The notes: generated by a model not told the origin, from the sequence alone. DNA of 63,432 nucleotides, filler included, from a bacterium (GCA_024275095.1; 9 parts of 9 records of this genome joined end to end with filler, not necessarily neighbours in it); one strand, 5' to 3'; shown: positions 168 to 61,328, counted from the whole stretch's first letter. Program-made: numbers and translations.

Positions 168-2249
168 TTACTCATCCACCACCACCCACAGCTGGCTGAC
201 ACGGGGCAAAAGCTGCACGCGGAGTATCGGGCTTTTTTGTGACAGGCCCGTCCAGGCTTCAACTGCTGTGCAGCTGTCGGTGCACGCGCCGGTACGGCGA
301 AGATCAAATGAGATCGTACTTGGTGCATCCGTCCAGTTGAAGATCCCGACAATCGTGCTGCCCGGGCCGATGGTGCTCCATACAATTGAAGGGACGCTGT
401 ATCTGGAAGGCATGAACAACTGCGTTAGAATATCTGCCGGTGCACCACCGGGTTTTTGATGATCTTTCTCAATGGAAGGGATTGGGAAACTTGTACGTTG
501 TGTGACCAGTGCTTTGAATATTTCGGTGGAAAATATACGTTTCAACAGTTCTTTCTTTTCTGTTTCCATCTGTACAAGGTCATCTCCGAGTGCAAAAATT
601 TTACCAGCCAGCAGAGCCGCGTTGATAAAAGTACGTGCCTCTTCTGCAGAAAGATCCCGGAGAAGTACCGTGTCCGGGTCTCCGGCAAACACACGGTTCC
701 AGTGAAATCGCCAGAAAACATTGCGCATTTCATTTTTTACAAAAGGCCAGCCGTACGGCATTGCTTCGAAAGCAATATCAGAACCGACTCTCGCACCGTG
801 AAACAACCCAGCTGATGGAAGGAGCGGGGCACCGCACGCGAGCAAATAGGTATCCGGTCCGGCCTCTTCCGCAATAATTTCTATCCCTCGCCGGTAGGCT
901 TCAATAGAGGTCATGTAAGGCTTGTACCGGATTCCGGGCATGGCAGCGGCAAATAAAAAATCCAGTTTGAGGTACCTGAACCCCCAATGCCTCAATTCCC
1001 GTATGACACTCCGCAGAAAGTTTTCCGCTTCCGGGTGTGTAATGTCGAGGACGAGGTATGTTTTCCCGGAACCGGGATTGAGGTATCGAACGAAAGAGCC
1101 GTCAGGGTTTTTGAGGAACCAGTGGGGATGCGATGTTGCACCAGGAAGTGATTCATCGTACAGAAAAGGTGCAATCCATATGCCCGGTATAAATCCTTGG
1201 TCTATCAGCTTTTGGGCCATTTCGCTCATCGCAGTAAAAAAAGGTTTGAGAAAAGAGGGATCTCCTTTCCACTCTCCCCAGGCTTTTTCCCAGCCGTCAT
1301 CGATCTGAATGACAAGAGGAATGTCCTCGACCAGTGTTTTTAATGCTTCTGCCTGCTGCAGTATCAGACCGGCTGTAATGGAAGAGAAAAAAGTATTCCA
1401 CGAATTCCAGCCCACAGGAATAAAAGGTGCAGAAGGCCGTGTGTTGAATTTCCCGAGCAGGGTCCCGTATGTTTTTAACCCTGCTTCTATGGATTCGGCC
1501 ACCACCACTGCCAGTATGTCAGAGGAAAGCGTCTCCCCGGGGAATAAACTTTTGGCGTCACCTTCGCTGCAACCATTGACGATTTTTACGGAGCCCCCCG
1601 GGTGGAGAAGCACTCGGGTTTTAAAAACGTGACTCCGGAGAGCACCTGCTATCACTGCAAAGGAAAGGCTTTCAAATCCTCCATCCCACCAGGATACATA
1701 GGGATTTACAACGGGGTCATTGGGGTTTTCTCCGCTGTTTGACCAGATGTCTTCTGAAGGAGGTGATTCCCACTGGCCGTTCCACACAAATGCGGGGGAC
1801 CAGGACTGGTATCCATCGTGAAACATGCGGGTAATCTCGAGGCTTGTGGAGGGATTGAACTCTACGAGAAAGCATTTCACTTTTACGGGTTTGGTGGAGG
1901 TGTTTGTGTATGTAATTGAAAGAGTTGCCGAGGAAGCAAACTTTTCTGAATCCGGGGTTACATCCAGGCGGATGGAGGTGTTGTCACACTCGGGAAGCTG
2001 GTTTCCTTTCCTCCACACGCATCCTTTCACGTGAAAGGAAAAGTTTCCCGAAGTGGTATGAACAACCATTGCCGGGCCTTCTGGTGCCATGGAATATTCG
2101 AGATGAGGGGGAAGGGCACCGCCTTTTTCGCAGCCTGTTGTTATGTGAAGGGGTAAAAGCAAAAAACTTATTATTTGAAGGGCCTTTATCGTCTTTGTGG
2201 TACCGGGTCTTTCTCGGTCAATTCTCATACCCGGCATTTTATCAGTCAA
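168..2249 (-). CDS. Glycoside hydrolase, GH36/GH27 clan-D (alpha-galactosidase-like), probable lipoprotein
   Basis: 693-aa ORF with motifs GWNSWN, QIDDGWE, PGIWIAPF, YLKLDF, ACGAP and RVGSDI. The hydrophobic N-terminus ends in ITTGC (lipobox-like). Exact start uncertain. Confidence 0.8.
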   Translation of the reverse strand: MTDKMPGMRIDRERPGTTKTIKALQIISFLLLPLHITTGCEKGGALPPHLEYSMAPEGPAMVVHTTSGNFSFHVKGCVWRKGNQLPECDNTSIRLDVTPDSEKFASSATLSITYTNTSTKPVKVKCFLVEFNPSTSLEITRMFHDGYQSWSPAFVWNGQWESPPSEDIWSNSGENPNDPVVNPYVSWWDGGFESLSFAVIAGALRSHVFKTRVLLHPGGSVKIVNGCSEGDAKSLFPGETLSSDILAVVVAESIEAGLKTYGTLLGKFNTRPSAPFIPVGWNSWNTFFSSITAGLILQQAEALKTLVEDIPLVIQIDDGWEKAWGEWKGDPSFLKPFFTAMSEMAQKLIDQGFIPGIWIAPFLYDESLPGATSHPHWFLKNPDGSFVRYLNPGSGKTYLVLDITHPEAENFLRSVIRELRHWGFRYLKLDFLFAAAMPGIRYKPYMTSIEAYRRGIEIIAEEAGPDTYLLACGAPLLPSAGLFHGARVGSDIAFEAMPYGWPFVKNEMRNVFWRFHWNRVFAGDPDTVLLRDLSAEEARTFINAALLAGKIFALGDDLVQMETEKKELLKRIFSTEIFKALVTQRTSFPIPSIEKDHQKPGGAPADILTQLFMPSRYSVPSIVWSTIGPGSTIVGIFNWTDAPSTISFDLRRTGACTDSCTAVEAWTGLSQKSPILRVQLLPRVSQLWVVVDE

Positions 2250-2366
2250 ATCACCAAGAGGTACACAGTTTCTTTTACATCATGGTGTAGACATTACAGA
2301 ATTCCCTTGACGAAAGGGTGTACTCAACCATATTTTATGCACTGCATCATAAAGAGGGGGTTGAAG

Positions 2367-2738
2367 TTGGCATATCTTGCTGTGGGAGTTGCGGTTTTTG
2401 CAATCACAGCCATCGGTTTTGTGCTGATTTCCATTATTATTAATCACCTGTTGGCACCGCGACGCGTTACTCCCCTGAAAGTAGAACCTTATGAATGTGG
2501 AGAAAAAGTCGTTGGTGATGCACGGATACGGTTTGATATGCGTTTTTACATAATAGCTCTGGCATTTATTATTTTTGAAGCAGAAGTCGTCTTCTTTTTC
2601 CCATGGGCAGTGGTACTCAAAAGACTGCGATATCTTGCATTTTTTGACATGCTTGTTTTTCTCATCATTCTCGTTGTGGGGCTTTACTATATCTGGAAAC
2701 GCGGTGACCTCAAGTGGGTAAAAACCCCTGTGAGGTAG
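2367..2738 (+). CDS. nuoA: NADH-quinone oxidoreductase subunit A (copy 1)
   Basis: PYECGE, RFYIIALAFIIFEAE and WKRGDLKW motifs. Start placed at the TTG after a GAGGGGG SD. Confidence 0.93.
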   Translation: MAYLAVGVAVFAITAIGFVLISIIINHLLAPRRVTPLKVEPYECGEKVVGDARIRFDMRFYIIALAFIIFEAEVVFFFPWAVVLKRLRYLAFFDMLVFLIILVVGLYYIWKRGDLKWVKTPVR

Positions 2739-2741
2739 AAA

Positions 2742-3224
2742 ATGGGTGTTCTTGATAACAGGCTGCCGGATAATGTGTTTTTTGCAATGGCGGATGATTT
2801 TGTTAACTGGTCACGCAAAAACTCTCTCTGGTATCTCCTTTTTGCCACTGCATGTTGTGGCATAGAACTCATGCACACGGGAGGTCCGCGGTTTGATCTG
2901 GACCGGTTCGGCTCGGTATTTCGAGCATCGCCGCGACAATCGGATTTGATGATTGTCGCAGGTACGATTACGTATAAAATGGCAGACCCGGTACGCCGTC
3001 TTTACGAGCAAATGCCTGAACCCAAGTGGGTTATTTCCATGGGTTCCTGTGCGAACTCAGGGTGTCCGTTTAATCCTCACACGTACTCAGTGGTCAAAGG
3101 TGTGGACCGGATTATACCCGTTGATGTTTACATTCCCGGTTGCCCTCCACCTCCTGAAGCGCTGATAGAAGGCATTATGAAACTTCAGAGAAAAATCGAA
3201 GCATCCAAGGTCTTCAGGAAATAG
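2742..3224 (+). CDS. nuoB: NADH-quinone oxidoreductase subunit B (copy 1)
   Basis: [25 protein letters not shown] and PGCPP (N2 cluster ligands). Confidence 0.97.
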
Positions 3225-3233
3225 GTGAAACAC

Positions 3234-3704
3234 ATGAAGGACCTGAACACATTGGTACAGGATTTGCAAGCCGCTGTTGAAGGTGCGATAGAAGAGGTTG
3301 TCACAGAAAACACACAACCACCTTATATTATTGTGAAAAAAGAAAAAATTGTTCCTGTGCTTGAGTACCTGAAAAAAGAAGGTTTCAATCATCTTTCCGC
3401 TGTTTCTGCAGTGGATGAGCCGCCTGAAAAGATATGGGTGGTTTATCATCTTGTAGCAATAGGAGAGAAATCAACCCTCGCTGTTAAAACCGTTCTGCCC
3501 CGCGATGCTGCTGAGGTTGATTCGGTGGGCAATGTGTATCCAACGGCACTGTGGCACGAGCGCGAGGCCTATGACCTGATGGGAGTGAAATTTAAAGGTC
3601 ATCCTGATTTGAGGCGCATACTCATGCCCGATGACTGGGTTGGACATCCCCTTCGGAAAGATTACGAACAGATAAAAGAGTACCACGGGATTAAGACGGA
3701 CTGA
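3234..3704 (+). CDS. nuoC: NADH-quinone oxidoreductase subunit C (copy 1)
   Basis: [24 protein letters not shown]...GHPLRKDY. ATG at 3234 follows an AGGTGA SD; GTG 3225 is an alternative start. Confidence 0.95.
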   Translation: MKDLNTLVQDLQAAVEGAIEEVVTENTQPPYIIVKKEKIVPVLEYLKKEGFNHLSAVSAVDEPPEKIWVVYHLVAIGEKSTLAVKTVLPRDAAEVDSVGNVYPTALWHEREAYDLMGVKFKGHPDLRRILMPDDWVGHPLRKDYEQIKEYHGIKTD

Positions 3705-3705
3705 G

Positions 3706-4818
3706 ATGCTGGAGACGCAGGAACTTGTAATAAACATGGGACCTCAGCACCCTTCGACCCACGGGGTGCTGAGATTGTTGCTTCATACAGACGGAGAAAT
3801 TATTGTAGAAGCCCAGCCTCATGTTGGTTATCTCCATCGCGGAATAGAAAAAATCGCCGAAAAGGTGAATTACCACCAGTTTATGCCCTATACCGACCGC
3901 ATTGATTACCTTGCATCCATGAACTGCAATCACGCTTATGCCTGTGCTGTTGAGCGTCTCATGGGCATTGAGGTTCCGGAGAGAGCCCAGTTTATCCGGG
4001 TGATTATGAGCGAACTCAACCGCATCGCATCGCATCTTGTGTTTTTTGGCAGCTTCGGAATGGACGTGGGAGCATTTACGCCCTTTTTGTACGGTCTTCG
4101 GGAAAGAGAAAGGACCTTAGACCTGTTTGAAGCAGCATGTGGTCAGCGGCTTACCTACAACTACATGAAAATTGGCGGTGTTCGCTGGGACCTTCCTCCG
4201 GGATGGACAGACAAGTGTCGGGAATTTTGCGATTATTTTGAGCCCAAAATTCAGGAATATCACGACTTGCTCACGTATAACTACATTTTTATGAAGCGTC
4301 TTGGAAACATTGGTGTGCTTACACCGGAAGACGCGCTTGCCTACGGTGTTACAGGTCCCAACCTCCGGGCCAGTGGGGTGGCTTACGATATCAGAAAGGA
4401 AGAACCTTACGATGTATACGACCGTCTGGAATTTGATATTCCAGTGGGCACTGGTGAAGCGGGGGCTGTGGGAGATTGTTTTGACCGTTATATGGTTCGT
4501 ATCAAAGAGATGCAGCAGAGCGTAAGAATCATTCGTCAGTGTCTGGACATGATGCCGGAAGGCGATGTTCAGGCACGGGTGCCCCGGGTGCTCAAAATTC
4601 CGCCCAAGGAGATCTATTTCCGCGCAGAAAATCCTCGTGGTGAGCTCGGGTTTTACATTGTCGCCAACGGCAAACCATCTCCAGAGCGGCTTAAAATTCG
4701 GGGTGCCAGCTTTTCCAACATCCATGTGATGGAGAAAATACTCCCGGGCCTCATGGTGGCAGACGCGGTGGCCGTGATAGCAAGTCTTGATGTAATTCTG
4801 CCGGAATGTGACAGGTAA
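3706..4818 (+). CDS. nuoD: NADH-quinone oxidoreductase subunit D (copy 1)
   Basis: NMGPQHPSTHGVLR, GYLHRGIEK, DRIDY and ENPRGE. No NiFe CxxC pairs, so not a hydrogenase large subunit. Confidence 0.97.
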   Translation: MLETQELVINMGPQHPSTHGVLRLLLHTDGEIIVEAQPHVGYLHRGIEKIAEKVNYHQFMPYTDRIDYLASMNCNHAYACAVERLMGIEVPERAQFIRVIMSELNRIASHLVFFGSFGMDVGAFTPFLYGLRERERTLDLFEAACGQRLTYNYMKIGGVRWDLPPGWTDKCREFCDYFEPKIQEYHDLLTYNYIFMKRLGNIGVLTPEDALAYGVTGPNLRASGVAYDIRKEEPYDVYDRLEFDIPVGTGEAGAVGDCFDRYMVRIKEMQQSVRIIRQCLDMMPEGDVQARVPRVLKIPPKEIYFRAENPRGELGFYIVANGKPSPERLKIRGASFSNIHVMEKILPGLMVADAVAVIASLDVILPECDR

Positions 4819-4866
4819 GGAGTCGTGCTTGAGAATGTCAAACGAGGATGTTAAAGGGATGAGACC

Positions 4867-5958
4867 ATGGATCAGCTGACGAAATTATTTTACAGTCTGG
4901 GCCTTTCTCCTTATTACGGGATTTTTGTGGCTGCATTCTTGCTGGCGGTCATTATCCTTGCCTTTGCCCTTCTTTACGAGGGTGTGGCCACGTATGTGGA
5001 AAGAAAAGTGGCGGGTGATATTCAGTCGCGTATTGGTCCGAACAGGGTGGGTCCTTACGGAACGCTGCAGTGGCTTGCTGATGGTGTTAAGTTGTTTCTC
5101 AAGGAAGATTTTATTCCCGCCCAGGCGGATAAACTCATATTTCGAATTGCTCCTTATTTCGTATTTGTCGGTTCTTTTTTACCATTTGCAGCCCTGCCGC
5201 TGTGGGACAGATTTGTACCGGTGCCCATGAATATAGGGCTTCTTTACATCATAGCCGTTACTGCCATGGTGACACCGGGTATCGTGCTTGCAGGTTGGGG
5301 TTCCAACAACAAATGGGCATTGCTGGGCGGCATGCGGTCTGCGGCACAATTGATCAGTTATGAAGTACCCAATGCCGTTGCTTTGCTTATTCCCGTGCTT
5401 ATTGCAGGCACACTTAATCTCGATGAAATTGTGCGTGCCCAGGGCGGTGGTGGAGGAATACTGCGCTGGTTCATCTTTCACGATCCTTTTTCTTTTATGG
5501 CGTTTTTCATCTTTTTTACAGCCGGCCTGGCGGAGTGCAATCGCACCCCCTTTGACCTCCCTGAAGCCGAATCTGAACTCGTTGCCGGGTACTCGGTGGA
5601 ATATTCAGCCATTCGGTACGCCTTTTTTTACATGGGCGAGTATGGTGACATGTTCATTATTTCAGCCATGGCTTCTGCCGCGTTTCTTGGCGGATGGCAG
5701 CTTCCTCTTATTGATCCTCTCGTAAAGATTGGCTGGTTAAAAGCAGTTCTTCAGCTGGGTATCTTTTTGACCAAGACGCTGTTGCTTGTACTTGTAATGA
5801 TGTGGATACGCTGGACCTTTCCGCGTCTCCGTGTGGACCAGCTCATGGAACTTTCGTGGAAAAGATTGCTTCCCATAGCACTTTTTCTGCTCATGGGTGC
5901 AGCCTTGTGGACGGTGGTGTTTCACGGAAAAGGAATCTACGACCTCATAGTGGGGTAA
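4867..5958 (+). CDS. nuoH: NADH-quinone oxidoreductase subunit H
   Basis: ERKVAGDIQSRIGPNRVG, NRTPFDLPEAESELVAGY and PRLRVDQLM. Confidence 0.97.
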   Translation: MDQLTKLFYSLGLSPYYGIFVAAFLLAVIILAFALLYEGVATYVERKVAGDIQSRIGPNRVGPYGTLQWLADGVKLFLKEDFIPAQADKLIFRIAPYFVFVGSFLPFAALPLWDRFVPVPMNIGLLYIIAVTAMVTPGIVLAGWGSNNKWALLGGMRSAAQLISYEVPNAVALLIPVLIAGTLNLDEIVRAQGGGGGILRWFIFHDPFSFMAFFIFFTAGLAECNRTPFDLPEAESELVAGYSVEYSAIRYAFFYMGEYGDMFIISAMASAAFLGGWQLPLIDPLVKIGWLKAVLQLGIFLTKTLLLVLVMMWIRWTFPRLRVDQLMELSWKRLLPIALFLLMGAALWTVVFHGKGIYDLIVG

Positions 5959-5961
5959 AAA

Positions 5962-6498
5962 GTGGGAGTGATTAAGGAAATTATTGATGTGGCGAAGTCT
6001 CTGGGTAAAGGCCTGAAGGTTACTGTGAAGTATTGGTTCAGTCCCTCTTCCACCATTACCGTGCAGTATCCCGAAGAAAAGAGAGCCCTTTCCGAGCGTA
6101 CCAGAGGTATTCTTTTCAATGATGTGGTGAAATGCACTGCCTGTTCAGCCTGTGTGCTTGCGTGCCCCGTAAAATGCATTTCTCTGGTGCCGGTTGGAAA
6201 GGGGAAAGCACGGAAGCCCAAATCCTTCGTCATCACCATCAGCCAGTGCATGTTTTGCGGGTTGTGTGTGGATGCCTGTCCGACGAAGAGCCTGCAGCAC
6301 ACTCAGGAGTTAACCATGGCCCGGTATGGACTGGAGGATTTACAGATTGAATACGTCACCCCTGAGATGGCGGAACGTTTTGTACGTGAAGCTGAAGAGT
6401 ATGAAAGAACTCAGGCAGAGAAAGCGAAGAAGGAAGCGGAGAAGTCCGCACGGAAACCTGAAGAGAAGGGTGAAGGAGATCAGGGAGGCTCTCAGTGA
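5962..6498 (+). CDS. nuoI: NADH-quinone oxidoreductase subunit I (2x[4Fe-4S])
   Basis: TVQYPEE and two CxxCxxCxxxCP motifs, followed by a charged C-terminal tail. Confidence 0.95.
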   Translation: MGVIKEIIDVAKSLGKGLKVTVKYWFSPSSTITVQYPEEKRALSERTRGILFNDVVKCTACSACVLACPVKCISLVPVGKGKARKPKSFVITISQCMFCGLCVDACPTKSLQHTQELTMARYGLEDLQIEYVTPEMAERFVREAEEYERTQAEKAKKEAEKSARKPEEKGEGDQGGSQ

Positions 6499-7004
6499 AG
6501 GGGAACCCCGCCATTATTGTTTTCTGGTTGTGTGCCATGCTCACGTTGCTTTTTGCTGTGTGTGTGATTGTGGCACGTGACCTCGTGAGAGCAGTGACGG
6601 CCTTGCTTTTTGCTTTGCTCATGACAGCGGGCATGTATTTCGCTCTGGGTGCGGATTTTCTGGGCGCGGTGCAGATTGTCCTTTACGTGGGTGGAGTGGT
6701 TGTACTGGTGCTGTTCGGAGTGATGCTTACAAGGGATGTAGAAATGACAGTTCCTTACCTGGGATTTGGACAGTTTTTGCCTGCACTTATTGTCGCTGGT
6801 GCTGTGACATGGGGGTTGTGGCATCTGGCAGACTTCCTCCCCCGAAAAGCTTTTCCACCTGTACATCGCAGTGTCACCCCCATTCTTGGAGAGTTGTTTA
6901 TGAAGAAGTACATCGTCGCATTTGAGGTTGCTTCTGTTCTTCTGGTGGGAGTGCTTATTGGAGCTGCATATCTTGTGAGACGCGAAGTGAGGCGGGAAGA
7001 ATGA
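6495..7004 (+). CDS. nuoJ: NADH-quinone oxidoreductase subunit J
   Basis: ADFLGAVQIVLYVGGVVVLVLFGVMLT and FEVASVLL; operon position. Confidence 0.95.
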   Translation: MKGNPAIIVFWLCAMLTLLFAVCVIVARDLVRAVTALLFALLMTAGMYFALGADFLGAVQIVLYVGGVVVLVLFGVMLTRDVEMTVPYLGFGQFLPALIVAGAVTWGLWHLADFLPRKAFPPVHRSVTPILGELFMKKYIVAFEVASVLLVGVLIGAAYLVRREVRREE

Positions 7005-7309
7005 TTCTTTACACGTATCACATATTCCGTGTTTCAGCAGTGCTTTTTGGATTGGGTGTTTTTGGAATGCGGGTCAGGCGAAATGCCATCAGCATGCTTC
7101 TTTCTCTGGAACTCATGATTAATGCTGCAGCTCTTAATCTCGTGGCAGCCGCTGCGTTTACGGGCACATACATCAGTGGTTTCAGCATGGCTGTTTTTGT
7201 CATCGTTATCGCGGCGGCGGAGGCGGCTGTCGCTCTGGCAATATTTATTGCTCTGTTTAAATCTCGCAGGTCCATTGATGTGGACGAAGCAGCGGAGATG
7301 AAGGGATGA
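7001..7309 (+). CDS. nuoK: NADH-quinone oxidoreductase subunit K
   Basis: RRNAISMLLSLELMINAA and AAAEAAVALA. Confidence 0.95.
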   Translation: MILYTYHIFRVSAVLFGLGVFGMRVRRNAISMLLSLELMINAAALNLVAAAAFTGTYISGFSMAVFVIVIAAAEAAVALAIFIALFKSRRSIDVDEAAEMKG

Positions 7310-9288
7310 GCGAACACTCACTTCAAACACTGCTGGTCATTATTCCTCTTCTTCCCATGGCGGGATTTATCATCAATCGTTTCTTTGGTCGGCGTTTGGG
7401 AGAGCGTGCTGTGTCTCTGATTGGTCCTGGAGTGGTTGGGCTGGCATTCCTGCTCTCTGTAATAGTTATTGTCAGCCTTTCACTTTCAGGTGAAGAGCGC
7501 CTGGTCGCCTATGTTCTTCCCTGGATGCACGTTGGGCAATTCCAGGTGGATTTTGCGTACGTGCTTGATCACCTTTCCGCAGTAATGCTTCTGGTTGTTA
7601 CCGGTGTTGGTTTTCTCATTCACGTGTATTCCATCGGCTATATGCACGGCGACAAGAGTTATCACGTGTATTTTTCGTACCTTAACCTTTTCGTCTTTAT
7701 GATGCTTACTCTTGTAATGGCCGAGAATGTTTTGCTCATGTTTCTCGGATGGGAAGGAGTGGGACTCTGTTCGTATCTTCTTATCGGGTTCTGGTTCGAG
7801 GAGTGGGAAAGAGCCCGCGCCGGTATGAAGGCGTTTGTCGTCAACCGGGTGGGCGATTTTGGCTTTTTGCTGGGGATCCTTCTGCTGTTCTGGACTTCCT
7901 GGGAGCTGGGACATCCCACCCTCAGTTTTCACTCGCTGGAAGAGATTGTTACCCGGATGTCACCACCGGTGATAACGATTATTTGCCTCCTTTTGTTTGT
8001 TGGGGCCACAGGCAAATCCGCCCAGATTCCTCTTTACGTGTGGCTTCCTGATGCCATGGCCGGTCCAACACCTGTGAGTGCTCTTATTCACGCGGCTACC
8101 ATGGTAACGGCCGGTGTGTACATGGTGGCGCGGCTCAACTTCATGTATTCTCTTTCTCCCACCGCCTCCCTTGTTGTTGCTGCTGTGGGTGCGCTCACCG
8201 CCTTTTACGCAGGGACGATGGGAGTGGTGGCCACCGGGATCAAGAAGGTACTTGCGTATTCCACAATTTCTCAACTTGGCTACATGTTTCTGGGTGTGGG
8301 CGTGGGTGCATACGTGGACGGAATGTTTCACCTCACGACCCACGCTTTTTTCAAAGCCCTTCTCTTTTTAGGAGCCGGCAGTGTGATGCACGCCATGGCC
8401 GACGAAGAAGACATCATGAAAATGGGAGGCTTGCGCAAGTACATTCCGTATACGTACTGGGTGTTTCTCTTCGGTGCTCTTGCTCTCGCTGGAGTGCCTC
8501 CATTTGCAGGATTTTTCTCCAAGGATGAGATTCTTCTCAAGACATTTGCACAGGGCCATTATGTGCTTTATGCCATTGGACTTGCAGGAGCATTTGTCAC
8601 TGCTTTTTACACATTCCGACTCGTGTTTTTGACTTTCCACGGTGAGGAAAGATTTGACCATCACAAAGTTCATCCTCACGAATCACCGTGGGTGATGATT
8701 GTACCCATGATGATACTGGCAGTTCTTTCTCTGATAGGAGGGGCGGTGCTGGGCTTTCCTCATCACAGTTTAATGGAAGGGTATCTTGAGGAACTGTTCC
8801 GTTACGAGGTTCATGCTGAAGGAGCACCCGCTGGTTTGCTCATGCTCGTGTCCACAGTGGTTGCTCTCTCCGGCATTGGGCTTGCAGGATATGTGTATCT
8901 TCTGAGACCTGAGTTGCCGTCACGGATTGCCGAACGGTTCAAGGGACTCTATAGCCTCCTGTGGAATAAATACTGGGTGGATGAAATCTATCAGGCACTG
9001 TTTGTCAACGGTGCTCTGGGGCTGGCCCGTTCTTTAGCACGTTTTGACCTCGGCGTTGTTGATTTCCTCGTCAATTTCTCCGCACGCTTTACCGTTCTTG
9101 TCTCCCGGTTCAGCGGCTGGTTTGATCTTAAAGGTGTGGATGGAGCTGTGAATGCGATAGCGAGTGCAACAGAAGGCGCGGGGGATGGGGTTCGTCGTGT
9201 TCAAACAGGGGTGCTGCAGAATTATCTCTTGATATTCATACTCGGTGTAGCCTGTATTGTGGCTTATAAAATTTTCTTTGGAGGGTAA
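7306..9288 (+). CDS. nuoL: NADH-quinone oxidoreductase subunit L, with a 26-aa duplication in the amphipathic helix
   Basis: GWEGVGLCSY, GKSAQIPLYVWLPDAMAGPTPVSALIHAATMV and HAFFKALLF. Confidence 0.97.
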   Translation: MSEHSLQTLLVIIPLLPMAGFIINRFFGRRLGERAVSLIGPGVVGLAFLLSVIVIVSLSLSGEERLVAYVLPWMHVGQFQVDFAYVLDHLSAVMLLVVTGVGFLIHVYSIGYMHGDKSYHVYFSYLNLFVFMMLTLVMAENVLLMFLGWEGVGLCSYLLIGFWFEEWERARAGMKAFVVNRVGDFGFLLGILLLFWTSWELGHPTLSFHSLEEIVTRMSPPVITIICLLLFVGATGKSAQIPLYVWLPDAMAGPTPVSALIHAATMVTAGVYMVARLNFMYSLSPTASLVVAAVGALTAFYAGTMGVVATGIKKVLAYSTISQLGYMFLGVGVGAYVDGMFHLTTHAFFKALLFLGAGSVMHAMADEEDIMKMGGLRKYIPYTYWVFLFGALALAGVPPFAGFFSKDEILLKTFAQGHYVLYAIGLAGAFVTAFYTFRLVFLTFHGEERFDHHKVHPHESPWVMIVPMMILAVLSLIGGAVLGFPHHSLMEGYLEELFRYEVHAEGAPAGLLMLVSTVVALSGIGLAGYVYLLRPELPSRIAERFKGLYSLLWNKYWVDEIYQALFVNGALGLARSLARFDLGVVDFLVNFSARFTVLVSRFSGWFDLKGVDGAVNAIASATEGAGDGVRRVQTGVLQNYLLIFILGVACIVAYKIFFGG

Positions 9289-9294
9289 GGAATC

Positions 9295-10767
9295 ATGGGT
9301 TCTCACCTTCTTTCATGGATGACATTTTTGCCGCTTGCAGGAGCGGTACTCGTATTGCTGGTGCCGCGTTCTCGCAAGGAATTGATGAAGTGGGTTGCAT
9401 TAATATCCACTTTACCCTCACTGGGCATATCTGTTTATCTACTCACTCAGTTCAACTTTTCTTCAAGCAGTTTTCAGTTTGTGGAGAAAGGTCTCTGGAT
9501 CCCTGCTTTTAACATTCATTACTACATGGGGGTGGATGGCCTTTCCATGCCCATGGTGTTCCTTACCACCCTTCTTGTCACCATCTGCATTATAGCATCG
9601 TGGAGAATCGATACGGGACTGAAGGGGTATCTGGCCCTTTTCCTCATGCTGGAAACAGGGATGCTGGGGGTGTTTGAGGCGCTGGATTTCTTTCTCTTCT
9701 ACGTTTTCTGGGAAGTAGGACTCTTCCCCATGTACTTTATTATCGGAATATGGGGAGGGCCTCGAAAAGAGTATGCAGCCATCAAGTTCTTTCTCTATAC
9801 ACTGTTTGGCAGCGTGTTCATGCTCTTGAGCATGCTCTACATGTACTTTACAACCAATCCTCATACATTTGACCTCACTGTACTCATGCAGTCCGCTGCA
9901 GGATATCCGCTTCGTATTCAGATGATCCTTTTCGCTGCATTTTATATTGCGTTTTCCATCAAGGTGCCCGTGTTCCCCTTCCATACATGGTTGCCTGATG
10001 CTCACGTGGAAGCTCCTACCGCCGGTAGCGTTATTCTTGCAGGGATTCTTCTGAAAATGGGCACTTATGGATTGCTTCGTTTTAATTATCAGCTTCTTCC
10101 AGATGCCACCCGTGCCGCTGCTTACTTTCTCGCCGTGATGGGGACCATCAATATTGTATATGGTGCACTTGTCGCCATGGCTCAAACAGATTTCAAAAAA
10201 CTGGTGGCTTACTCCTCTATTTCTCACATGGGCTATGTATTGCTGGGGATTGCGTCTCTAACGGACCAGGGAATTATCGGCGGTACCATGCAGATGTTCA
10301 ATCACGGTGTGATCACAGCCATGCTCTTTTTGATTGTAGGTGTGATTTACGACAGGGTACATCATCGCGACCTCAACCGCTTTGGAGGCCTCGCTTCGGC
10401 AATGCCATTGTATGCAGGTATTACGAGCATTGCCTTTTTCGCGGGAATGGGTTTACCCGGGCTCAACGGATTTATTTCTGAAGCGCTCACGTTTCTCGGT
10501 GCGTTTAAGATTTACAAGATCCTCACAATTATTTCTGCAACAGGGGTGGTGCTGACAGCAGGTTACATGCTCTGGACAATGGAACGGGTGTTTCTTGGAC
10601 CCCTCAACGAAGCGTACAAGGGGATTAAAGAGATCAGCGCTCGAGAGATGCTGTGCCTGGTACCGCTGGCTGTTATCGTGGTGTTCCTGGGAATATACCC
10701 AACTCCGCTAATAGACTTAATGAAAGCGACGCTTATTGCTATCAAAGGAGGCGTACTGGGGTTCTGA
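9295..10767 (+). CDS. nuoM: NADH-quinone oxidoreductase subunit M
   Basis: FYVFWE, IKVPVFPFHTWLPDAHVEAPT, LLKMGTYG and AYSSISHMG. Confidence 0.97.
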   Translation: MGSHLLSWMTFLPLAGAVLVLLVPRSRKELMKWVALISTLPSLGISVYLLTQFNFSSSSFQFVEKGLWIPAFNIHYYMGVDGLSMPMVFLTTLLVTICIIASWRIDTGLKGYLALFLMLETGMLGVFEALDFFLFYVFWEVGLFPMYFIIGIWGGPRKEYAAIKFFLYTLFGSVFMLLSMLYMYFTTNPHTFDLTVLMQSAAGYPLRIQMILFAAFYIAFSIKVPVFPFHTWLPDAHVEAPTAGSVILAGILLKMGTYGLLRFNYQLLPDATRAAAYFLAVMGTINIVYGALVAMAQTDFKKLVAYSSISHMGYVLLGIASLTDQGIIGGTMQMFNHGVITAMLFLIVGVIYDRVHHRDLNRFGGLASAMPLYAGITSIAFFAGMGLPGLNGFISEALTFLGAFKIYKILTIISATGVVLTAGYMLWTMERVFLGPLNEAYKGIKEISAREMLCLVPLAVIVVFLGIYPTPLIDLMKATLIAIKGGVLGF

Positions 10768-10768
10768 G

Positions 10769-12238
10769 ATGACGATACTGTCCCAGATTCGATTTTTAAT
10801 CCCAGAGATTATTGTCAGTGCAGGTGCGCTTACCGCGCTGGTGGCTAATGCGCTGTTGGAGAGCAAAGAACGAATACAAACTCCCTATGTGGTTCTTGTG
10901 TCCTTTGCTACAGCCCTGTTAACGCTTGTCATTCTCGCAGCAGATGCCCCACAAAAACTGTTATGGGGCACCTATATGTTTGATGCTTATGCAGTATATT
11001 TCAAAGGATTTTTCCTGGTGCTCGGAACAGTAATTGCTCTTCTGGCAGTGCACACGCCTTCCATTAGCTCTTTGCAGTCAGGAGGAGAATTCGCTTCGTT
11101 ACTGGGTTTTTCCATTGTTGGAGCCATGGTTGCCGCCTCAGCAGGAGATTTCATTACCATGGTTGTGGCTGTCGAGACGGTGAGTATGCTGGGGTATGTG
11201 CTCGCCGGGTTTACGCGTACACGCCTCTCCAGAGAGGCTGCGGTCAAATACGTGCTTTACGGAGCATTTTCAACAGCCATATCCCTTTTTGGTATCAGCA
11301 TGATTTTCTGGGCTACCGGGCAGCTTGAATTCAAGCAGCTTTCAGCCGTGGTTCAGATAAGTCCGTACAAACAGTTCGTATTTGCGGGATTGATAATCTT
11401 TTTGACAGGACTCTTCTTCAAGGCAGCGGCTGTACCATTTCACATGTGGTCTCCTGACGTGTATCAGGGTTCTCCCACACTGGTTACAGCCTACTTTTCA
11501 GTAGGGCCGAAAGCGGCGGCTTTTGCTGTAATCGGGAGGGTCTTGCTGGACGGCTTTGCAAGACGTACGATGTCCGTTGACTGGATTGTTCCACCGGGTA
11601 TTGATTGGCCCATCGTGATCGCGGTGATTTCCGCTCTTACCATGACGGTTGGCAATCTTTCCGCTCTTTTGCAAAAAGACCTCAAACGCATGCTTGCTTA
11701 CTCTTCAATTGCACATGCAGGATACATGCTCGCAGGTTTTGCCGCCAAAAACGTAATTGGTACCTCCGGTGTACTTTACTACCTGGGTGCGTATTTGCTC
11801 ATGAACCTGGGCGCTTTCTTTGTTGTGCTCGCTGTTGAGGAGACGGGAAAGGGTACTCATCTCGACTCTATCCGCGGTCTTGGCTGGACCAGCCCTCTTG
11901 CCGGAGCCACGATGGCGATATTTCTTCTCTCTCTCACAGGGATTCCACCCTTTGCAGGGTTTGTGGGAAAACTCGTAGTTTTCGGTGCTGTTGTGAAAAG
12001 CAAGCTTTACTGGCTGGCCGTGCTGGGGGTGCTCAATAGTGTGATTTCTCTCGGGTATTACGGACTTATGCTCAAGAAAATATACCTGGAGCGCAGCGAT
12101 GAGCAGGTCATACTTCCGCGAGTGTATTCACCTGTTCTTGTGGCTCTGGCAGCCTTGACGGTTTTCCTTGGAATTTGTTTCAACCCGTTGATAGAATACA
12201 CCGCCCACGGGGCAAAGTTATTGGGGGTGCTTTTTTGA
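10769..12238 (+). CDS. nuoN: NADH-quinone oxidoreductase subunit N
   Basis: EAAVKY, FKAAAVPFHMWSPDVYQGSP, KRMLAYSSIAHAGY and GIPPFAGFVGK. ATG at 10769. Confidence 0.96.
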   Translation: MTILSQIRFLIPEIIVSAGALTALVANALLESKERIQTPYVVLVSFATALLTLVILAADAPQKLLWGTYMFDAYAVYFKGFFLVLGTVIALLAVHTPSISSLQSGGEFASLLGFSIVGAMVAASAGDFITMVVAVETVSMLGYVLAGFTRTRLSREAAVKYVLYGAFSTAISLFGISMIFWATGQLEFKQLSAVVQISPYKQFVFAGLIIFLTGLFFKAAAVPFHMWSPDVYQGSPTLVTAYFSVGPKAAAFAVIGRVLLDGFARRTMSVDWIVPPGIDWPIVIAVISALTMTVGNLSALLQKDLKRMLAYSSIAHAGYMLAGFAAKNVIGTSGVLYYLGAYLLMNLGAFFVVLAVEETGKGTHLDSIRGLGWTSPLAGATMAIFLLSLTGIPPFAGFVGKLVVFGAVVKSKLYWLAVLGVLNSVISLGYYGLMLKKIYLERSDEQVILPRVYSPVLVALAALTVFLGICFNPLIEYTAHGAKLLGVLF

Positions 12239-12606
12239 TGGGAAGTATTCCCCTTGATTTTCTGAGACTTGCTTTCTGGATTCTTGTTGTTCTTGCCATT
12301 ACAGCAGGAATGCTTGTTTTAACTCACCTGTTGGGTCCGCGCAGGCCTGACCCGACAAAAAGTTCTCCGTATGAGTGTGGTTTTCCGCCTTTTCACGATG
12401 CAAGAAAGCGCCTGTCCGTACGCTTTTACACGATTGCCATGATTTTTCTCATCTTCGATGTGGAAGTGGCGCTCATTTATCCCTGGGCGGTTGTTCACAG
12501 GGACATGGGCACCCTGGGATTTGTGGAAATATTGATTTTTCTTGTAATTTTGTTTGCCGGCTATATTTATGTAATCTTGCGGCGGGCTGTTGAGGTTGAA
12601 CGGTGA
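12238..12606 (+). CDS. nuoA: NADH-quinone oxidoreductase subunit A (copy 2)
   Basis: PYECGF and [15 protein letters not shown]. The ATG overlaps the nuoN stop (TGATG). Confidence 0.93.
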
Positions 12607-13082
12607 GCGAAGGTTTCTTTATCAGCAAACTGGAATGGCTTATAGGGTGGGGGCGTAAGTATTCCCTGTGGCCTCTTCCTTTTGGTACTGCATGTTGCGC
12701 CATTGAGTTCATGTCATCCGTGTCCTCTCATTACGACATTTCGCGTTTTGGCGCAGAGGTGGTGCGTTTTTCACCCCGCCAGGCGGACCTGATGATTGTT
12801 GCAGGAACCATTACTTACAAGCAGGTGCCTGTGCTCAAGCGAATTTACGCTCAGATGCCCGAACCCAAATGGGTAATCGTTATGGGAAATTGTGCCTGTT
12901 CCGGCGGAATTTTCGACACCTATTCCACCCACCAGGGAGTGGACATGGAAATCCCTGTGGATGTGTACGTGACAGGATGTCCTCCGAGACCAGAGGCCTT
13001 AATTGACGCCATCGTAAAAGTTCAAGAAATGGCTCAAAGAGGCGAGTGGCATGGATCGAGAAAGCGCCAAAAAGCTGGTTGA
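12603..13082 (+). CDS. nuoB: NADH-quinone oxidoreductase subunit B (copy 2)
   Basis: [26 protein letters not shown] and GCPPRPEAL. Confidence 0.96.
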
Positions 13083-13563
13083 AGAAGTAGCAGGAGAAGC
13101 CTTAGAGGGCTTCCTTGAGACAGGAGACGTACTCGCGGATGCTTTTGTCTCCAGGGATAAAATTGTTGATGTGCTTTTGACCTTGCGGGAAGAAAAAGGA
13201 TTCAAAATGCTTGTAGACCTGTTCGGGGTGGACCGTCGCCCCGATGAAGAACGGTTGGAGGTTGTTTATCTGCTGCTAAATCTCAAGGAAAAGGCTCGCA
13301 TTCGAATTCGCGTAAAGGTTCCTTTCGACGATCCGGTTGTCCCGTCTCTCACTCCTCGCTGGAAGGGTGCCGACTGGTTCGAGCGTGAAGCATACGACAT
13401 GTTCGGCATCGTATTTAAGGGTCATCCTGATCTTCGTCGTCTCCTCATGTGGGAGGGATTCGACGGGCATCCGCTGAGGAAGGATTTTCCGCTCAAGGGA
13501 AAATTGCTCCCTGACCAGCGTTACAGTAGAAATGACCCGCGCAGACACGGATGGGAGGCATAG
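13051..13563 (+). CDS. nuoC: NADH-quinone oxidoreductase subunit C (copy 2)
   Basis: [26 protein letters not shown]...GHPLRKDFP. Confidence 0.95.
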
Positions 13564-13568
13564 CAAGC

Positions 13569-13756
13569 ATGCAGTTCTGGGAAAAGGATGAAGATGGACG
13601 GATGATCATTAACGTTGGGCCGTCTCATCCGGCCATGCACGGGACACTCCGTGTGATTGTAGAACTGGATGGAGAGGTCATCCTTCGTGCAGACCCGGAA
13701 ATCGGGTATCTGCACAGGGGGGTGGAAAAACTGGCGGAACATCTCAACTATCAGGC
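13569..13756 (+). CDS. nuoD: NADH-quinone oxidoreductase subunit D (copy 2), 3' truncated by contig end
   Basis: [14 protein letters not shown] and GYLHRGVEK. Confidence 0.92.
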
Positions 13757-13856
13757 NNNNNNNNNNNNNNNNNNNNNNNNNNNNNNNNNNNNNNNNNNNN
13801 TTAATTAATTAANNNNNNNNNNNNNNNNNNNNNNNNNNNNNNNNNNNNNNNNNNNN
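13757..13856. other. Artificial contig linker
   Basis: N-run, TTAATTAATTAA (stops in all six frames), N-run; 100 nt. Confidence 0.98.
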
Positions 13857-15871: not shown

Positions 15872-16265
15872 GTGAAGCCGACACGTTCGCTTGTAAATGT
15901 GGAACTGTATTATCTGGTATACGTGCTTCTTTTATGCGGTGTTTCGTTTGTTTTCCCTGTTGTACGAGACACAGGCATTCACATTGATAATGCCTTTCTC
16001 TCACCTTCTCTATCATTGCCTTTTGGCACGGACAGGCTGGGTAGAGATTTGTTCGTGATTTCACTGGAAGGCATTCGGAATTCTTTTATGATCGCTGTGG
16101 CTGCCACAACAATTTCGTTCTTTATCGGAACCTTTTGCGGGATACTCTCGGGTTACGCAGGAGGATTGGTTGATGCGGTGTTTATGAGAGTTCTGGAAGT
16201 GTTTCAGGCTTTCCCCGGATTTTTACTTGCACTGGCATTCGCCGCTTTTCTGGGACCTTCATTTA
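15872..16265 (+). CDS. Opp/Dpp ABC transporter permease (C subunit), 3' truncated
   Basis: PFGTDRLGRD and GYAGGLVDAVFMR. Confidence 0.9.
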
Positions 16266-16365
16266 NNNNNNNNNNNNNNNNNNNNNNNNNNNNNNNNNNN
16301 NNNNNNNNNTTAATTAATTAANNNNNNNNNNNNNNNNNNNNNNNNNNNNNNNNNNNNNNNNNNNN
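16266..16365. other. Artificial contig linker
   Basis: N/TTAATTAATTAA/N. Confidence 0.98.
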
Positions 16366-16812
16366 GTCACCGGACTTTTTAGCCACGGTAGACATGTGTG
16401 ACGGGTCCACCACGTCGAACTCCTCTTCAATGGCACAGGCCAAAAAATCGTTGTAAGCATCAGGTTTTGATAAGGGTTCCAAAAAGGTCTTGGCCTGTTC
16501 AGGTGTCCCCAGCGCATTGATAAAGTACGCAGCAGGAAGTGCAGAAAAAAGACCTCTGGTAGCCCCTGGGTCCCCCCACGCAAGTTCCTCTGCAACAACC
16601 ACGCGGTCGATCATGCTGAGACCCTGTCCCCCCACCTCTGCAGGGAACTCCATAAGAGCCAAGCCGAGTTCTGCGAAAGATTTTCTTACATCCTCGGCGA
16701 TTTCCTGAGAATCCTCAAATTCCCGCATCCTATCAAGCAACTGGTCTTGAGCAAAAGAATGCACCATGTCCACCATCAGGCGCTGTTCTTCTGTCAATTC
16801 AAATTCAACCAT
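16366..16812 (-). CDS. Acyl-CoA dehydrogenase family protein, 3' truncated
   Basis: FELTEEQRLM...FA, PAEVGGQG, EELAWGDPG and GTPEQ. Confidence 0.88.
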
Positions 16813-18204: not shown

Positions 18205-18304
18205 NNNNNNNNNNNNNNNNNNNNNNNNNNNNNNNNNNNNNNNNNNNNTTAATTAATTAANNNNNNNNNNNNNNNNNNNNNNNNNNNNNNNNNNNNNNNN
18301 NNNN
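18205..18304. other. Artificial contig linker
   Basis: N/TTAATTAATTAA/N. Confidence 0.98.
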
Positions 18305-21348: not shown

Positions 21349-21448
21349 NNNNNNNNNNNNNNNNNNNNNNNNNNNNNNNNNNNNNNNNNNNNTTAATTAA
21401 TTAANNNNNNNNNNNNNNNNNNNNNNNNNNNNNNNNNNNNNNNNNNNN
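21349..21448. other. Artificial contig linker
   Basis: N/TTAATTAATTAA/N. Confidence 0.98.
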
Positions 21449-23853: not shown

Positions 23854-23953
23854 NNNNNNNNNNNNNNNNNNNNNNNNNNNNNNNNNNNNNNNNNNNNTTA
23901 ATTAATTAANNNNNNNNNNNNNNNNNNNNNNNNNNNNNNNNNNNNNNNNNNNN
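23854..23953. other. Artificial contig linker
   Basis: N/TTAATTAATTAA/N. Confidence 0.98.
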
Positions 23954-34156: not shown

Positions 34157-34256
34157 NNNNNNNNNNNNNNNNNNNNNNNNNNNNNNNNNNNNNNNNNNNN
34201 TTAATTAATTAANNNNNNNNNNNNNNNNNNNNNNNNNNNNNNNNNNNNNNNNNNNN
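34157..34256. other. Artificial contig linker
   Basis: N/TTAATTAATTAA/N. Confidence 0.98.
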
Positions 34257-50667: not shown

Positions 50668-50767
50668 NNNNNNNNNNNNNNNNNNNNNNNNNNNNNNNNN
50701 NNNNNNNNNNNTTAATTAATTAANNNNNNNNNNNNNNNNNNNNNNNNNNNNNNNNNNNNNNNNNNNN
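50668..50767. other. Artificial contig linker
   Basis: N/TTAATTAATTAA/N. Confidence 0.98.
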
Positions 50768-61228: not shown

Positions 61229-61328
61229 NNNNNNNNNNNNNNNNNNNNNNNNNNNNNNNNNNNNNNNNNNNNTTAATTAATTAANNNNNNNNNNNNNNNN
61301 NNNNNNNNNNNNNNNNNNNNNNNNNNNN
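61229..61328. other. Artificial contig linker
   Basis: N/TTAATTAATTAA/N. Confidence 0.98.

Follow-up and report, generated by a model that had tools for sequence, protein, structure and literature searches.

The window analysed here, a stretch of 63,432 nucleotides (nt) from a bacterial genome (GCA_024275095.1), encodes in its first part an operon for respiratory complex I (set 1), whose antiporter-like subunit NuoL (NuoL1; 660 amino acids, positions 7306–9288, plus strand) has an extended lateral amphipathic helix. NuoL1 consists of an ordinary NuoL core and one extra 26-residue helix unit that arose by an old tandem duplication. The long-helix form is the usual NuoL of a widespread class of 11-gene operons that lack nuoEFG and contain a single nuoM, and the second nuoM of 2M operons appears, from gene trees, to have arisen within this class. 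The gene nuoL1 is a regular member of the class: it belongs to no damaged 2M operon and is not peculiar to this genome. Tentatively, and with somewhat less than even confidence, we propose that the longer helix holds two copies of the single NuoM, so that an L-M-M-N arm would be built from three genes with the helix as a ruler. The 26-residue insertion has so far been read as the mark of a fourth pump derived from a second nuoM; in our survey it occurs mostly without a second nuoM and goes together with loss of the module that binds reduced nicotinamide adenine dinucleotide (NADH). The combination of a long strap and a single NuoM, common in bacteria without the NADH-binding genes, has already been noted once, in Manganitrophaceae (Yu et al., 2022, PMC9040806).

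The duplicated helix unit of NuoL1

The original prediction, made from the sequence of the window alone, placed two copies of an acidic motif near the C-terminus of NuoL1, and both their coordinates and their frame are borne out: FDLGVVDFLVN is encoded at 9043–9075 and FDLKGVDGAVN at 9121–9153, 78 nt apart and in the nuoL frame. The motifs open the two units of a tandem 26-residue duplication in the lateral helix (9043–9120 and 9121–9198), with a unit consensus of the motif FDxxx[IV]DGxVN followed by 15 residues. The two units are identical at 9 of 26 residues, against a mean of 1.7 over all 609 adjacent 26-residue window pairs of NuoL1. All window pairs with at least seven identities lie at residues 564–582, and this is therefore the only internal repeat of that period in the protein. 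In their DNA the units agree at 28 of 78 positions, a level within background (mean 20.2, standard deviation 4.2; 39 of the 609 windows reach 28), and the duplication is therefore old. A recent duplication of the helix unit was also considered and is ruled out by this background-level identity.

As assigned by DSSP on an AlphaFold2 model, the lateral helix spans residues 537–632 (8914–9201, plus strand). It includes the extra unit with the FDxxxVDxxVN motif (unit 1, residues 580–605) and unit 2 (residues 606–631), which stands in the same register to the QTG motif and to transmembrane helix 16 (TM16) as the single unit of short-helix NuoL. The TM16 anchor helix, preceded by a QTG..Y motif, follows at residues 637–658 (9214–9279, plus strand), as located by the model and by conserved anchor residues. 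Between DExY and QTG, NuoL1 has a motif spacing of 70 residues, compared with 46 in the second NuoL of the same genome and 44–46 in those related non-long NuoL that the motif search could measure, except for one at 38. In a phmmer alignment to Thermus Nqo12, NuoL1 residues 585 to 618 match chain residues 561 to 567, and the lone motif of cyanobacterial NdhF aligns with both NuoL1 copies. The net lengthening of about 26 residues that had been proposed is thus seen against both Thermus Nqo12 and the genome's second NuoL, and NuoL1 carries the helix insertion that characterises 2M complex I. The second nuoM that also characterises it is absent from set 1. As had been read from the sequence, the operon runs L-M-N with one nuoM of normal length (490 amino acids) between nuoL and a single nuoN, and a second nuo set, a 14-subunit operon in tandem, is indeed present downstream. 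The suggested genome-wide search for more nuoM genes found only that of this second set: PF00361 matches six antiporter-like genes in the whole genome, namely L, M, and N of both sets, with no orphan nuoM or further member of the family.

The remainder of NuoL1 is that of a typical NuoL. Its gene lies between nuoK and nuoM, and the protein matches the Pfam families Proton_antipo_N (E-value 9e-21) and Proton_antipo_M (3.8e-85) and the NuoL/Nqo12 chains of PDB (E-value 3e-140). The AlphaFold2 model, built from an alignment of 67 long-helix sequences, has a mean predicted local distance difference test score (pLDDT) of 88.9. In a VIA-align search with this model, every one of the 50 best solved chains is a NuoL relative (Z 49–55), and the core superposes on E. 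coli NuoL with a root-mean-square deviation of 1.4 Å over about 550 residues (Z about 55, 41–47% identity). The lateral region is modelled as helices at residues 537–544, 546–553, 555–607, and 612–632, followed by TM16, with a pLDDT of 47–81 that falls below 50 at residues 606–612. The insert prolongs the helix in this single-chain model and does not loop out, although such a model cannot reveal a partner beneath the helix.

Both units are conserved across phyla, as seen in the 67 long-helix NuoL (39–56% identical to NuoL1). In unit 1, D581 and D586 are invariant, and in unit 2, D607, D612, G613, V615, and N616 are at least 90% conserved; among the TM16 anchor residues, Q633 is at least 90% conserved and G635 and Y640 are invariant. 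QTG lies 26 residues from the last acidic motif in 70 of 84 long-helix and 46 of 53 short-helix NuoL, and 84 of 103 long and 55 of 74 short ones have the TM16 anchor motif. Residues 5–603 of the 625 in Mycobacterium NuoL align to model residues 5–609, and residues 1–586 of the 605 in Thermus NuoL align to model residues 8–613, such that the whole helix of both is spent by model residues 609–613; none of the 50 best chains aligns past model residue 626. A long-helix profile matches nine PDB chains, and the three best, whose alignments were examined, match as two overlapping halves. No chain among the nine spans both units with a clear score, and the long-helix enzyme is therefore without a solved structure. 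One chain, the barley chloroplast NdhF (7eu3_F), does match in a single 75-residue stretch over profile positions 23–96 (E-value 1.3e-5), which may reflect either a longer helix or an artefact of the alignment; no such single-stretch match is given by two further NdhF chains from chloroplasts (9grx_F and 7wff_F).

The long helix as the usual form in operons without nuoEFG

A first motif search missed 18 of 79 NuoL in the first set and 24 of 99 survey loci, and long helices were instead recognised by a hidden Markov model (HMM) criterion. Among 80 related loci from named records, six are long-helix by this criterion (two L-M-M-N and four L-M-N), one more is cut at a contig end, and 70 have a short helix. 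The comparison genomes are all kin at the domain level only and thus form a broad sample. Seven of the first 40 have a spacing of 70–71, each in an operon of the order A-B-C-D-H-I-J-K-L-M-N with one nuoM. The long-helix profile was then run over 401 genomes and gave a match of any kind in 214. The matches are of two kinds, running end to end over about 300 nt or forming halves of about 160 nt, and those running end to end occur at no fewer than 100 places in at least 99 of the 401 genomes, that of the window included.

From the matches listed, 99 long-helix loci of 98 other genomes were taken, and the survey counts are accordingly lower bounds. All 99 loci pass the HMM criterion, and 92 have two acidic motifs 24–28 residues apart; in the other seven (L167, L172, L199, L234, L240, L241, and L244) this spacing was not matched by pattern search, and L240, L241, and L244 may not be true long helices. 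The order following the long-helix nuoL is M-N in 82 of the 99 loci, M-M-N in three, M with no N found in 12 (some at contig ends), and something else in two, while the complete order nuoABCDHIJKLMN is present in 66. The original prediction had regarded a long helix beside a single nuoM as an unusual architecture, which these counts do not support. It had also envisaged that such NuoL might prove common in single-nuoM operons and fit an L-M-N arm with the insert looped out, of which the commonness is found and the looping out is not, the single-chain model keeping the insert in line. In six loci (L185, L197, L198, L203, L206, and L210), nuoM starts more than 500 nt after the NuoL match ends; the NuoL open frames there are long (722–1430 codons from stop to stop) and may include C-terminal extensions or an additional small gene.

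Long helices are associated with the absence of nuoEFG from the operon. The gene preceding nuoH is nuoD in 70 of 106 long-helix loci and in one of 69 short-helix loci, whereas nuoE, F, or G precedes it in seven of 106 and 39 of 69, respectively; nuoA takes this place in seven long-helix and six short-helix loci, and 22 and 23 could not be assessed. Where either nuoD or nuoE/F/G precedes nuoH, the share of nuoD is therefore 70 of 77 for long helices versus 1 of 40 for short ones. No test statistic accompanies these counts, since the sampling differed between the long and short sets and kin cannot be treated as independent genomes. From the missing NuoEFG alone, we infer that the set 1 enzyme may take electrons from a donor other than NADH, such as ferredoxin.

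Genes with PF00361 were counted in 98 of the 99 long-helix genomes (G181 was left out). Ten genomes have exactly three such genes, nine of them being 93–100% complete (G032, G102, G303, G077, G239, G241, G233, G373, and G061) and the tenth 68% complete (G255). The commonest count is six, corresponding to two nuo sets, in 26 of 80 long-helix genomes as well as in G000, G031, G034, G006, and G029.

In a tree of NuoM with 174 tips, proteins from long-helix operons are set apart from those of short-helix operons with seven changes of class, and two clades of 54 and 27 tips (support 0.91 and 0.99, respectively) are purely long-helix. The two-nuoM operons share this helix class, and their insert equals that of NuoL1, as had been supposed, with a spacing of 70 in L007, L030, L230, and L236 and of 74 in L239. 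The paired NuoM of L007 and L030 are sisters within the 27-tip clade, and those of L230, L236, and L239 fall within another long-helix clade. The nesting of these pairs indicates at least two separate duplications of nuoM, each in an operon whose NuoL was already of the long-helix form.

The longer helix and the number of pumps

The count of protons pumped per electron pair follows from how many antiporter-like subunits complex I contains, and it determines what respiration yields in energy or what reverse electron flow costs. In helical form, the additional unit would contribute about 39 Å, a length computed as 26 residues × 1.5 Å and not taken from model coordinates, and this is roughly the width of one antiporter-like subunit. 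Since neither the anchor motif nor the unit adjoining TM16 departs from the short-helix register, TM16 probably still docks on NuoN. Such docking would leave space for one more antiporter-like subunit between NuoL and NuoN. The occupant proposed here, already considered in the original prediction, is a further molecule of the one NuoM that the operon encodes, in which case the length of the helix would determine, like a ruler, how many pumps are fitted. Pumping a fifth proton for every two electrons would be in keeping with a low-potential donor, for instance ferredoxin, given that NuoEFG is missing from the enzyme. Two copies of NuoM are preferred here because the unit is one pump wide, repeats the pump-contacting motif, and keeps the TM16 register, and because the helix is equally long where two nuoM genes exist. 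With a little more reserve, the same may be suggested for the whole long-helix class without nuoEFG (at least 99 of 401 genomes): four pumps would be assembled from three genes with two NuoM, five rather than four protons would be moved per two electrons, and 2M operons would be later nuoM duplicates. If true, a doubly used nuoM that later duplicated and diverged would explain the apparent repeated rise of 2M.

Several points weigh against two NuoM copies. We know of no precedent for one antiporter-like product in two non-equivalent places of a complex I relative, and the proposal is drawn from geometry and parsimony rather than from a count of subunits. The structural model is of NuoL alone, and its weakest part is the junction of the two units, where a kink or bulge is possible. 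A tree of the NuoL core (177 tips) mixes long and short helices with 15 changes and does not give a clean origin of the insertion; the unit may therefore be easily gained or lost, which fits a less critical role. The survey counts have limits as well: the composition of the 401-genome set is not known beyond kinship at the domain level, kin within it are not independent of each other, and the short-helix set was drawn by another sampling. A prediction of the complex with two NuoM1 copies, for which controls were not run, scored 0.00 against a mark of 0.42 and gives no answer either way.

Several of these points would equally suit a longer strap without a fourth pump, in which L, M, and N are present in one copy each and the proton stoichiometry is unchanged. 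We take this as the main rival and as less likely than not, and judge likewise the forms it could take, with TM16 docking further along the arm over NuoK/J/A towards NuoH or with a stabilising kink or bulge in the helix. Three antiporter-like genes in nine near-complete genomes are most simply read in this way, and the low confidence and the helix break at residues 606–612 of the model, together with the interleaving of long and short helices in the NuoL tree, are in keeping with it. However, the duplicated unit repeats a motif that in short-helix enzymes runs alongside one of the antiporter-like subunits, both units keep their acidic residues, and the unaltered anchor motif and register of TM16 argue for the same docking partner. 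Operons with two nuoM and a helix of equal length arose at least twice within the class, and each would need TM16 to be docked anew. Moreover, insertions of 6–7 residues in the E. coli helix reduced pumping efficiency to 20–25% (Belevich et al., 2011, PMC3274701), and the length of the helix is therefore not free to vary, which also speaks against a mere change of strap.

Of the remaining explanations, two had been put forward in the original prediction. A NuoM supplied in trans, with the NuoM2 of the tandem 14-subunit operon taking the fourth place, would fit the second set directly downstream and the six PF00361 genes that are the commonest count in long-helix genomes. NuoM2 is, however, only 46% identical to NuoM1 and clusters with NuoM of short-helix operons, and the second set brings a short-helix NuoL of its own, under which one M would fit. 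In the nine near-complete long-helix genomes there is no second set, and the three antiporter-like genes therefore leave no NuoM to come from elsewhere; supply in trans thus does not serve as a general explanation, and for set 1 it is very unlikely. That the long helix is a relic of an operon that once had two nuoM and lost one is hardly more probable, even though the helix is as long as in two-nuoM operons and Yu et al. (2022, PMC9040806) allow for a transition towards or away from extra pumps. A single nuoM is found in at least 82 of the 99 long-helix loci across many families, two-nuoM pairs are nested in single-nuoM clades and not the reverse, the duplication is old at the DNA level, and both units are clearly constrained. 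That an unrelated membrane protein from a gene elsewhere fills the gap beneath the longer helix is likewise improbable. This has no direct support; in a few loci nuoL and nuoM are over 500 nt apart, but in set 1 nuoL ends at 9288 and nuoM starts at 9295, and most of the 99 loci pack L, M, and N without spare room.

If the long helix does hold two copies of NuoM, the class would be a large and unstudied group of complex I with a new mode of building and a different ratio of protons to electrons. Alternatively, the insertion is no sign of a fourth pump, and the evidence for such a pump in 2M complex I then needs to be re-examined.

Genomic setting and relation to known complexes

The window consists of nine contigs (C62, C64, C65, C66, C67, C68, C70, C71, and C104) joined by runs of N at 13757–13856, 16266–16365, 18205–18304, 21349–21448, 23854–23953, 34157–34256, 50668–50767, and 61229–61328. 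The source genome has 136 contigs (2.45 Mb) and is 97% complete; it has no kin nearer than the domain level among 400 comparison genomes and represents a deep lineage that stands alone there. Genes cut at the joins are contig-edge effects and not pseudogenes, including an SBP_bac_5 gene from 13862, a 149-residue permease piece at 15872–16321, and the N-terminus of an acyl-CoA dehydrogenase at 16318–16812 (minus strand).

Set 1 occupies 2175–12238 on the first contig, C62 (1–13756), with all 11 core genes in one operon on the plus strand, each found as an open reading frame (ORF) with a Pfam match above the curated cut-off. The genes are nuoA (2175–2738, the real start of which is probably further downstream), nuoB (2742–3224), nuoC (3225–3704), nuoD (3706–4818), nuoH (4867–5958), nuoI (5962–6498), nuoJ (6495–7004), nuoK (7001–7309), nuoL, nuoM (9295–10767), and nuoN (10736–12238, with an uncertain start at the TTG at 10736 or at a later ATG). 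NuoM of set 1 clusters with NuoM of other long-helix operons. The gene nuoH follows directly after nuoD, and neither the ORF list nor Pfam gives a nuoE, F, or G between them. The second operon begins, also on the plus strand and by Pfam matches, with nuoA2 (12175–12606), nuoB2 (12603–13082), nuoC2 (13051–13563), and the 5' part of nuoD2 (starting near 13551 and cut by the end of the contig at 13756), and continues on the reverse strand of contig C41 as D-E-F-G-H-I-J-K-L-M-N. The end of C62 overlaps the start of the reverse complement of C41 by 302 nt with two mismatches, and this overlap and the ORFs of C41 place the 11-gene and 14-gene nuo operons in tandem in the genome. A tandem of an 11-gene long-helix operon and a second nuo operon, in either order, recurs in five other surveyed genomes (L221 in G324, L224 in G170, L118 in G039, L159 in G261, and L195 in G247).

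The cores of the two NuoL of this genome (the second at 6774–8681 on the reverse strand of C41) are 65.7% identical, and the two are sisters in the tree (support 0.97), neither of them exceeding 60% identity to any of 175 further NuoL. The remaining subunit pairs of the two operons share only 26–56% identity. The nuoL genes may have been homogenised between the tandem operons with the long helix retained in set 1.

The 2M complex I was reportedly defined in 2018 by Chadwick, Hemp, Fischer, and Orphan (ISME J 12:2668). In papers citing that work, it is a complex I with an additional NuoM and the helix insertion (e.g., PMC9040806 and PMC12342949), the insertion in the NuoL lateral helix being 26 residues long (Yu et al., 2022, PMC9040806). 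NuoL1 has an insertion of this length at the same place, and the two-nuoM operons surveyed have its tandem motif and spacing. Nitrospira 2M operons also resemble set 1 in having separate NuoC and NuoD and a proposed ferredoxin-linked role (PMC12342949). The difference is that set 1 lacks the defining second nuoM and the genome has no spare one.

The insertion is also present in the NuoL of two gene clusters of canonical content, Complex_I_1 and Complex_I_2 of ‘Ca. Manganitrophaceae’, for which it was left undecided whether additional pumps can be accommodated or a transition is under way (Yu et al., 2022, PMC9040806). These clusters share with set 1 the insertion together with a single nuoM but belong to another lineage, and the mismatch was reported for that one family only. 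In the portions of the literature consulted, which did not extend to Chadwick et al. (2018), no other description of long helices in single-nuoM or 11-subunit operons was found, and PMC13490349 and PMC8129789 contain nothing on a long helix in single-nuoM operons. Further routes to added pumps are represented by the Green complex I of rhizobia and by Complex_I_3 of Manganitrophaceae, in which two MrpD-like subunits replace NuoL and MrpD2 of Complex_I_3 has a 26-residue helix insertion (PMC9040806). Two surveyed clusters with two NuoL-like genes and several NuoM-like genes, J-K-L-M-[long-helix L] in L233 (G302:C10) and H-I-J-K-L-M-M-[long-helix L]-M-N in L240 (G329:C23), recall the five-pump Complex_I_3. 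Extra pumps in Green complex I and Complex_I_3 come from extra genes, whereas the genome with set 1 has no extra gene. With the canonical NuoL, Nqo12, and ND5 (E. coli 3rko and 7z7r, Thermus 4he8, and Mycobacterium 8e9g), NuoL1 shares the DExY start, the acidic motif, and the QTG-TM16 anchor, and it differs from them in having two helix units where they have one.

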